Source: Lewinellaceae bacterium
GTDB taxonomy: Bacteria; Bacteroidota; Bacteroidia; Chitinophagales; Saprospiraceae
NCBI GenBank assembly: GCA_963710195.1
Contig: CAVPZF010000008.1
Span: 1,179,410 to 1,243,409 of the forward strand
Length of the DNA stretch: 64,000 nucleotides
Reading direction: 5' to 3'
Every line of letters starts with the position of its first letter. Position 1 is the stretch's first letter. A program made the translations under genes and the position numbers. The notes below the pieces were generated by a model. The model was not told where the DNA came from. It saw nothing but the letters and a program-made list of their open reading frames with translations, and ran no database searches. Shown here piece by piece: positions 1-550 of this stretch.

Positions 1-88
1 CGGAGAAAGAGGGATTCGAACCCTCGATACGGGGTTACCGTATATACGCTTTCCAGGCGTACCTCTTCAACCACTCGAGCACTTCTCC
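1..88 (-). tRNA. tRNA-Ser (anticodon GGA)
   Basis: The reverse complement GGAGAAGTGCTCGAGTGGTTGAAGAGGTACGCCTGGAAAGCGTATATACGGTAACCCCGTATCGAGGGTTCGAATCCCTCTTTCTCCG folds as a class II tRNA: acceptor GGAGAAG/TTTCTCC, anticodon stem TACGC/GCGTA with loop CTGGAAA, long variable arm ATACGG/CCGTAT, T-loop TTCGAAT, discriminator G at window position 1. Confidence 0.95.
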
Positions 89-129
89 TATAATTTTGAA
101 CTGATAGCCATCCGTTGATGGACATTAAA

Positions 130-237
130 CAGGGGAGGCAAGTGAGGGGAGCTACCGTATCTACGCTTGAGCTGCGCTAATCGTCGTTCCTCCTCGGGGT
201 TCCAGGCGTATCGCTGCAACCACTCGAGCACTTCTCC
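130..237 (-). pseudogene. tRNA-Ser-derived pseudo-copy with 32-nt anticodon-loop insert (168-199) and no T-arm
   Basis: Matches the tRNA 5' half, resumes at AGCGTA-x-ATACGGTA after the insert, then diverges; no TTCGA T-loop. Confidence 0.75.
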
Positions 238-278
238 AATAATTTTGAACTGATAGCCATCCGTTGATGGACATTAAA

Positions 279-385
279 CGGGGGAGGCAAGCAAGGGAGC
301 TACCGTATCTACGCTTGAGCTGCGCTGATCGTCGTTCCTCCTCGGGGTTCCAGGCGTATCGCTGCAACCACTCGAGCACTTCTCC
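279..385 (-). pseudogene. Second tRNA-Ser-derived pseudo-copy with 32-nt insert (316-347)
   Basis: Same structure as 130-237; the insert differs by one base. Confidence 0.75.
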
Positions 386-462
386 AAAATTGATTTCCGC
401 GCCACCCCTTGTAAGCAGTAAGCGGCCGATGTCGTCGCCCACGCATTCGTGGAGATCTGACG

Positions 463-493
463 CAAAAATTGTAAAAACGATCAACAAAACAAA
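463..493 (-). promoter_or_regulatory. Possible Bacteroidota sigma-A promoter for the tRNA repeat array
   Basis: Minus-strand AATTTTTG (463-470, one mismatch to TAnnTTTG) with TTTG 19 nt upstream (490-493). Confidence 0.4.
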
Positions 494-550
494 ATTTTTA
501 ACCGGCTCCCGTGAAATAAGCAGGGGCATTTAGTCGTAGTAGTGCTTCGT

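Follow-up and report, generated by a model that had tools for sequence, protein, structure and literature searches.

The Rickettsia palindromic elements (RPEs), which are reviewed with other intragenic MITEs in PMC10969869, are non-autonomous repeats of about 100 to 150 bp that survive in frame within unrelated genes. REP and REPIN elements are very short dispersed repeats with small covarying hairpins and no coding capacity, and they are mobilised by RAYT transposases (PMC3116915). The same article names the "small dispersed repeats (SDR)" of heterocyst-forming cyanobacteria. Two further systems involve tRNA genes. Local tandem tRNA pseudogenes are collinear with the parent gene and adjoin it, and att-site duplications leave a tRNA fragment, broken in the anticodon loop, repeated beside the intact gene. 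The units at the locus described here are tRNA pseudogenes made by local duplication, and the insert that they carry behaves like an intragenic MITE.

We analysed a 64,000-nt stretch of DNA (the window) that begins within the tRNA-Ser(GGA) gene of the source genome, G000. The original prediction had placed two units of about 149 nt before this gene on the minus strand, and sequence reading, Tandem Repeats Finder, and BLAST bore out every detail of that description (Table 1). Each unit begins with the tRNA 5' end, carries the 32-nt insert, resumes the tRNA sequence, lacks the T arm, and contains a CCATC/GATGG hairpin, all as predicted. An A/T-rich spacer forms the last part of each unit, after the hairpin. 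Tandem Repeats Finder reported a repeat at window positions 51 to 391 with a period of 148, 2.3 copies, and 94% matches. When unit 1 was compared with the whole genome by BLAST, it matched itself at 100%, unit 2 at 97% over 147 nt, and the real tRNA along its first 38 nt at 92% with 3 mismatches, and there were no other matches. The three differences from the real tRNA (35/38 identity) all fall in the D arm, which reads GCAGCGA in unit 1 and GAAGAGG in the gene.

The insert in the two units has the sequence CCCCGAGGAGGAACGACGAT[C/T]AGCGCAGCTCA. It is laid out as CTCNGAG, a G-GAA-C mini-hairpin, CGACGATC, and an AGC-GCA-GCT mini-hairpin. The insert was predicted to lie between tRNA positions 37 and 38. 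It does lie within the anticodon loop, but the junction has A's from both the element and the loop, which leaves the exact insertion point ambiguous within A36 to A38, anywhere from 35/36 to 37/38.

Table 1. Features of the tRNA-Ser(GGA) locus, in window coordinates
Feature	Position	Strand	Remarks
Functional single-copy tRNA-Ser(GGA)	1..88	(-)	ARAGORN; Rfam tRNA 55.5 bits; final base(s) just beyond the window edge
Pseudo-unit 2, 149 nt	89..237	(-)	Decayed copy of tRNA-Ser and its 5' leader, with insert; aligns with units of 8 other species
Pseudo-unit 1, 148 nt	238..385	(-)	97% identical to unit 2
Unit 1, tRNA 5' half	348..385	(-)	Acceptor 5' strand, D arm, anticodon 5' strand, and loop to A37
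Unit 2, tRNA 5' half	200..237	(-)	
Unit 1, 32-nt insert	316..347	(-)	Core of the Lewinella-group mini-repeat; profile from dispersed copies matches, E = 5e-9
Unit 2, 32-nt insert	168..199	(-)	One C-to-T difference from the unit 1 insert
Anticodon-stem 3' strand and variable-arm 5' half (AGCGTAGATACGGTA)	unit 1 301..315; unit 2 153..167	(-)	
Decayed 3' part of the tRNA copy	unit 1 271..300; unit 2 122..152	(-)	C/T-rich, ~30 nt; lacks the T arm, keeps a weak acceptor 3' remnant
Leader hairpin CCATC-AACG-GATGG	unit 1 257..270; unit 2 108..121	(-)	Unit 2 copy lies directly upstream of the real tRNA
Conserved promoter-like block AAAAATTTTGTTTTGTTGATCGTTTTTACAATTTTTGCG, ~39 nt	461..499	(-)	~75 nt upstream of unit 1

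The real gene is the only one in the genome for a serine tRNA with the GGA anticodon, and its cloverleaf has an MFE z-score of -2.2. We ran the ARAGORN and covariance-model check that had been suggested for the units. ARAGORN and the Rfam tRNA model called the real tRNA-Ser(GGA) and neither unit. The T arm is absent from all 11 units that we aligned across species. A "tRNA-Gly(ACC)" call elsewhere in the source genome is a false positive inside a coding region. Searches of the 4.47-Mb genome, allowing up to 7 mismatches or using a profile, found no further copy of the unit or the insert. The proposed search for interrupted copies at other tRNA loci of the source genome found no partial copies.

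The neighbours of the locus are tatD (TatD_DNase) and exbB (MotA_ExbB), and there is no integrase or island near it. An ORF of 122 aa spans the units, but we rejected it as coding: no family matches it, and in a second genome, G001, the frame is not open. The insert core also contains AGGAGG, which could pair with the CCUCC of the 16S tail of this genome. We draw no conclusion from this pairing, because no start codon lies at a usable distance from AGGAGG.

We searched for the insert in 47 species genomes of the same genus. The insert is the 32- to 36-nt core of a short dispersed repeat; it is not specific to tRNA and, by these comparisons, appears not to be an intron. Its consensus in other species is AACTCYGAGGASGAASGACGATCAGCG(C)MAGCTAAA. 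There are at least 20 dispersed copies in G016 ("Lewinellaceae bacterium SD302") and at least 12 in G055, an incomplete genome. A few copies occur in G015, G021, G023, G041, G050, and G057, and others are found in marine metagenome contigs. The metagenomes yielded dispersed copies only and no tRNA-embedded units. In a pattern scan of one genome per prokaryotic species, the exact core was found only in Lewinella, Neolewinella, and Lewinellaceae records.

The settings of the core vary. It can stand alone or beside half-copies. It is also found inside a repeat of about 200 nt in G055, which has terminal inverted repeats of about 25 nt, and in the apical part of a long-stem repeat of about 300 nt in G041, G021, G023, and metagenomes. 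The 32- to 36-nt core itself has no terminal inverted repeats. In G016, copies lie in the sense direction and in the same frame within genes for a CN_hydrolase, a LytS-type His_kinase, and a SusC-like TonB receptor (Plug domain), and another copy lies antisense in an MFS transporter (MFS_1) gene. The G016 CN_hydrolase gene has 29 extra codons. Eleven orthologues are uninterrupted exactly at this site, and therefore insertion is demonstrated. The insert thus shows three traits of MITEs: it is multi-copy, it is non-coding, and it is present or absent at orthologous sites. Two copies are bordered by direct repeats of 7 and 10 nt. Direct repeats of at least 5 nt border 16% of the copy contexts, against 4.6% of shuffles, with two clear cases that differ in length.

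The core contains two GNA-loop mini-hairpins of 1 to 4 bp, and the whole unit is not palindromic. The first mini-hairpin alternates between G-GNA-C and C-GNA-G, and the second among AGC-GNA-GCT, ACC-GNA-GGT, and AGCC-GYA-GGCT. Across the pairs that were counted, 99% of the cells show pairing, and none of 500 shuffles reached the observed covariation score, in which the counts are of sequences and not of independent events. Rfam searches in E-value mode gave nothing relevant for the locus, for 19 dispersed-copy loci, or for the long G041, G021, and G050 contexts.

The original prediction had likened the insert to the REP-like repeats of Bacteroidota. A dispersed short-repeat family of a Bacteroidota lineage is indeed what we found, but its identity as REP did not hold. 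Like REP and REPIN elements, the copies are very short and dispersed, with small covarying hairpins and no coding capacity. Unlike them, the copies are also intragenic (in the MFS_1, His_kinase, CN_hydrolase, and Plug-domain genes), and we saw no inverted doublets. A RAYT connection is not apparent either. Y1_Tnp genes are present in 46 of the 47 genomes irrespective of copy number, and the core profile had no match in 16 Y1_Tnp loci. The sole match to the Y1/RAYT family in G016 is weak and lies about 100 kb from any copy. We therefore rejected a REP/REPIN-RAYT identity, since neither RAYT flanking nor an exclusively extragenic location was found. No recurring gene that could be a candidate mobiliser lies beside the dispersed copies.

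The RPEs are similar in that they are non-autonomous short repeats surviving in frame in unrelated genes, here those for the CN_hydrolase, His_kinase, TonB receptor, and MFS transporter. However, the conserved core is several times smaller than an RPE (32 to 36 nt), it lacks terminal inverted repeats of its own and is nested in several different larger repeats, and its host belongs to Bacteroidota rather than to Rickettsia. Elhai et al. (2008) reportedly described SDR as mobile-looking modules of a few tens of nucleotides that occur alone, in larger repeats, or within genes. SDR would resemble the present family in all three settings, but they belong to another phylum and have another sequence.

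A small element that targets tRNA loops had also been proposed. The small insertional element is real, as the empty CN_hydrolase site attests, but the targeting is not borne out: no other tRNA matched, and flanking inverted repeats are not enriched. A preference for hairpin loops was an impression from L028, L027, L056, and the tRNA, and we dropped it when flanking inverted repeats stood at 7.5% against 5.7% in shuffles.

Homologous units were found in 9 of the 47 species, namely the source genome and eight others (G001, G004, G011, G019, G042, G044, G056, and G058). In all nine, the units lie directly upstream of tRNA-Ser(GGA) and have the same insert in the same place. There are one or two units per species, with two in G000 and G001. 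A tenth species, G049, is the sister of G000 and G011; its unit measures 99 nt, having lost the anticodon arm together with the core through a deletion between two GGTA motifs. In the unit-bearing genomes, G000 included, the tRNA-embedded core is the sole copy, and none is dispersed. Dispersed copies thus occur in 0 of 9 unit-bearing genomes and in 8 of 38 others, a difference that by hand calculation gives about p = 0.16 and is not significant alone.

Several features tie the units to one another. The C-rich segment that replaces the T arm is related across the unit-bearing species, and unit 1 of the source genome has a derived D-arm state, AGCGA, in common with G011, G058, and G056. The pseudo 5' halves are identical to the live tRNA in G001, G019, G042, and G044, and the acceptor and anticodon-stem bases of the G056 unit are those specific to its own species. 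Both observations would follow from patchy conversion of the units by the live gene. The remnant of the acceptor 3' strand always lies at the same offset. G001, G044, and G049 have it in perfect form, elsewhere it is eroded, and its pairing is no better than in shuffles. Erosion of the anticodon stem and of the acceptor pairing is seen in several species. Changes in G058 and G011 that looked compensatory had hinted at a maintained acceptor stem, but they did not exceed those in shuffles.

The CCATC/GATGG hairpin does not belong to a tRNA mimic. It is a leader feature of tRNA-Ser, with a covarying stem and an AACG-type loop, and is found 20 to 35 nt upstream of tRNA-Ser(GGA) genus-wide, unit-less loci included. 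Because the hairpin is also in the plain loci, the duplicated segment was the native leader, hairpin and spacer, together with the tRNA.

In a tree of the adjacent exbB-like gene (42 species; a single gene, with moderate support), the unit bearers fall into several groups within a crown clade, and at least five lineages with plain loci lie between them. This pattern suggests that the unit was lost at least five times in the crown clade. G056 lies outside that clade, among unit-less and dispersed-copy species. Its position could reflect many extra losses, lateral transfer, or a second origin. The simplest history has one old duplication and one insertion, followed by repeated loss, trimming, and doubling through direct-repeat recombination. 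The proposal that the pseudo-copy was duplicated after the insertion is supported, since single units with that same insert occur in relatives and the doubling in G001 was independent.

Across the nine species, 18 of 23 columns (78%) are invariant in the insert core and 26 of 39 in the 5' half, whereas none of 33 is invariant in the decayed segment and none of 27 in the spacer. The corresponding figure for exbB fourfold sites is 16 of 101 (16%), and the pairwise exbB fourfold divergence of the unit bearers is 0.21 to 0.54. In crown-clade units, the second mini-hairpin has been lengthened by a compensated insertion of C and G. By these figures the insert core, although no other copy of it exists in these genomes, changes at a much lower rate than neutral sites do. 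Gene conversion may explain the 5' half. It would not explain the core, because these genomes contain no other core copy. We conclude that, where the unit persists, the primary sequence of the core and its mini-hairpins appear to be under constraint. The most likely reason is that the core is recognised by something. The unit as a whole seems to be dispensable in many lineages, because it has been lost at least five times and its core was deleted in G049.

A rival explanation is that the units are purely neutral relics, a decaying tRNA duplication around a dead mini-element, in which no part is selected and the apparent conservation reflects gene conversion and chance. We regard this as unlikely, although it deserves more weight than any other rival. 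The repeated losses and the core-deleting event in G049 speak for it, as do the decay of the T arm and of the acceptor and anticodon stems, the lack of a stable fold, and the four species whose 5' halves match the live tRNA, as expected from gene conversion. The difficulty lies in the core. It has no conversion donor in these genomes, it is 78% invariant when neutral sites are at 16% and the adjacent 33 columns at 0%, and its hairpin has undergone a compensated two-base change. The original prediction had kept a neutral decayed duplication as its fallback, and the slow evolution of the insert argues against it.

The units also invite comparison with att sites, where a tRNA fragment is likewise repeated beside an intact gene and the break is in the anticodon loop. 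The anticodon loop is a classic integrase crossover site. The units could be integration scars, left by small cassettes that recombined site-specifically in the anticodon loop, brought a new 5' half and leader, and stranded the old 5' half, with the core as a recombination arm. A tandem duplication is formally equal to the integration of a 148-nt circle, and the number of units varies. However, the 5' half is repeated here, not the 3' end, and the tRNA sequence resumes past the insert with the anticodon 3' strand and the start of the variable arm. The hairpin and spacer in the units are native leader, present in plain loci too. TatD and ExbB flank the locus without an integrase or island, and the same core occurs without any tRNA part in ORFs and in other repeats. 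We therefore consider integration scars very improbable.

RNAfold gave the units no better fold than shuffled sequence (z = +0.8, -0.05, and -1.2), and RNAalifold found no consensus structure besides the leader hairpin. A predicted helix between the D arm and the insert (GCUCGAGU with ACUCNGAG) is invariant in sequence. Rfam, the RNAfold z-scores, and RNAalifold thus lend no support to a known RNA family or a stable structured RNA, and we rejected that candidate.

These results bear on the idea that the units are real genes, either for a small RNA on a tRNA scaffold or for a tRNA with an intron, in which splicing would join CCTGGAA to AGCGTA. We consider this idea very improbable as well. The T arm is missing in every species, ARAGORN and Rfam call neither unit, and the units lack a stable fold. 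Three genomes (G001, G044, and G049) have a perfect acceptor 3' strand, but in most units the acceptor pairing is no better than in shuffles. The conserved core and an insert near 37/38 are what such genes might show, and the original prediction had drawn the analogy with the canonical intron position. That analogy fails: the same repeat lies in protein genes and intergenic DNA, there is no ribozyme-sized or bulge-helix-bulge structure, and the host is a pseudogene without a T arm. No helix joins the two junctions in the predicted folds, and Rfam had no intron match. A 32-nt sequence is too short for a self-splicing intron, and the archaeal splicing endonuclease is not known from bacteria.

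The least credible explanation is that the assembler doubled one unit, which might be suspected because the window starts within the tRNA and tandem repeats are error-prone in assembly, but which is hardly tenable because several substitutions and one indel set the units apart, the 1.55-Mb contig continues on both sides of the locus, two units arose independently in G001, and arrangements of one or two units recur in eight other independent assemblies.

The units are probably transcribed together with the tRNA. Many congeners, whether or not they have units, carry a near-identical block AAAAATTTTGTTTTGTTGATCGTTTTTACAATTTTTGCG ahead of their tRNA-Ser locus. A scan for the sigma-70 consensus at the locus found nothing, which is expected because Bacteroidota promoters differ from that consensus. 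The block may be a Bacteroidota-type promoter. Downstream of the tRNA there is a covarying hairpin and then a T-rich run. The conserved upstream block and these downstream features place the units within the presumed tRNA-Ser transcription unit, which suggests that they are co-transcribed with tRNA-Ser. They might then serve as the decoys, processing signals, or sRNA precursors that the original prediction had listed.

We favour the explanation that the units are old tRNA pseudogene copies with a fossil mini-element, whose core is still constrained and which are co-transcribed with the tRNA, and we assign it a probability of roughly 0.6. The comparisons indicate that the leader and tRNA were duplicated in a Lewinella/Neolewinella ancestor and that the anticodon loop of the upstream copy took up a member of the 32- to 36-nt repeat. 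The T arm and the variable arm's 3' half were then evidently lost from the upstream copy. By the same comparisons, the unit passed to at least ten species, was repeatedly lost or trimmed, and was doubled independently in G000 and G001. Recombination between the 5'-half direct repeats would drive the loss, trimming, and doubling, while gene conversion from the live gene may keep the 5' half of the units tRNA-like. Lying between the promoter-like block and the tRNA, the units would be transcribed within the tRNA-Ser precursor, and the RNase P cut at the 5' end of the real tRNA would free them. The core, with its two covarying GNA-triloop mini-hairpins and the invariant purine-rich GAGGAGGAACGACGAT, may still be recognised in a sequence-specific way, whether by a protein or by a complementary nucleic acid, and it could have been co-opted or become entrenched in the tRNA-Ser leader. 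The core itself would be no tRNA, no intron, and no stably folded sRNA.

Set against ordinary local tandem tRNA pseudogenes, the units are alike in being collinear with the tRNA (from the acceptor 5' strand to the acceptor 3' remnant), in adjoining the parent gene, and in including the leader. They are unlike them in persisting in at least ten species, in keeping the 5' half while the 3' part decays, and in carrying an insert of foreign origin that changes more slowly than the sequence around it.

A bolder version of the favoured explanation is that the mini-element has been domesticated. The twin GNA mini-hairpins and GAGGAGGAACGACGAT would then form a sequence-specific recognition module that a dead tRNA presents in its enlarged anticodon loop. 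Expressed from the strong tRNA-Ser promoter, the module would act as a small regulatory RNA or a binding-site sponge. We consider this doubtful, somewhat more so than the neutral relic. As a sponge, the module would bind a host factor or the machinery that moves the repeat family. The distribution of dispersed copies, with 0 of 9 unit-bearing and 8 of 38 other genomes having them, would fit a sponge for the repeat-moving machinery.

This work defines an apparently undescribed family of very small insertional repeats in Lewinella and Neolewinella, with a core of 32 to 36 nt, whose members can sit in frame within ordinary enzymes and transporters. For annotation, units such as those described here should be regarded as neither tRNA genes nor introns. 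If the constraint on the core is real, an essential tRNA gene present in a single copy would have held a fragment of selfish DNA in its leader for a long time, within a scaffold derived from a tRNA. In that case, tRNA pseudogenes and mini-repeats could turn in this way into regulatory RNA or into modules that bind proteins.

No genome of the genus combined the tRNA-embedded unit, a decayed tRNA-Ser(GGA) copy with its leader and a 32-nt insert, with dispersed copies of the short repeat whose core makes up that insert. Dispersed copies were present in 0 of the 9 unit-bearing genomes versus 8 of the 38 others, a pattern that is not significant alone and is in part phylogenetic.

The core is also carried by two larger repeats. 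The first, of about 300 nt, has long arms that are complementary within each copy and differ in sequence from copy to copy (AAAATCTGT/ACAGATTT versus AAAATTGAA/TTCAATTTT). The core is positioned close to the apex, and the 5' side of the repeat has a hairpin, CTCCTTTTC/GAAAAGGAG. An Rfam search found nothing matching this repeat. The second, of about 200 nt, is MITE-like, with terminal inverted repeats of about 25 nt (AAATAACTTAC..TTTTGACC) and a long hairpin inside. Its right half holds the core, and many contigs of its host assembly are broken at it.

Features of the tRNA-Ser(GGA) locus and of the larger repeats that carry the core (L numbers, individual loci compared)
Feature	Position	Strand	Remarks
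Near-invariant block AAAAATTTTGTTTTGTTGAWCGTTTTTRCAATTTTTGYG	window 461-499	minus	conservation among congeners
Leader hairpin, AACG-type loop	window 108-121 and 257-270	minus	also L008-L020, L159-L182 upstream of tRNA-Ser
Hairpin CCCGCCAAAGCGGTGGG, then TCATCATCTTATTATT	source genome, contig CAVPZF010000008.1, about 1179380-1179405, just outside the window	minus	conserved in relatives
Long-armed repeat, about 300 nt	L056 about 1390-1780; also L066, L017, L041, L151, L158		
MITE-like repeat, about 200 nt	L070, L073, L076, L091, L094		G055, Neolewinella MAG JBLIGS01

ARAGORN also reported a 96-nt "tRNA-Gly(ACC)" on the same contig of the source genome (1009319-1009414, outside the window). It lies within an apparent helicase-type coding region, and a paralogous stretch is present on contig C1. 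We rejected the call as a false positive.

Many congeners, among them the distant G020, G009, and G048, have the AAAAATTTTGTTTTGTTGAWCGTTTTTRCAATTTTTGYG block upstream of their tRNA-Ser locus, and it is a candidate for a strong Bacteroidota-type promoter. At the other end, the CCCGCCAAAGCGGTGGG hairpin and TCATCATCTTATTATT follow the tRNA by about 5 to 30 nt, and the stem changes among relatives are compensatory. Together they probably act as the terminator of the tRNA-Ser transcription unit; a simple terminator scan did not call the hairpin.

In most species of the genus, a hairpin with an AACG-type loop lies 20 to 35 nt upstream of tRNA-Ser(GGA), often followed by an ATTGA(C)A...A/T-rich spacer. 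The stem is variable but covarying, as in GCCGTT-AACG-AACGGT and ATTCAG-AACG-CTGAAT. The hairpin is probably a processing or regulatory signal of the tRNA-Ser leader. In the congener G011, which has a single unit, an unrelated stretch of about 170 nt (L004, about 1605-1790) lies between this unit and the real tRNA's leader hairpin.
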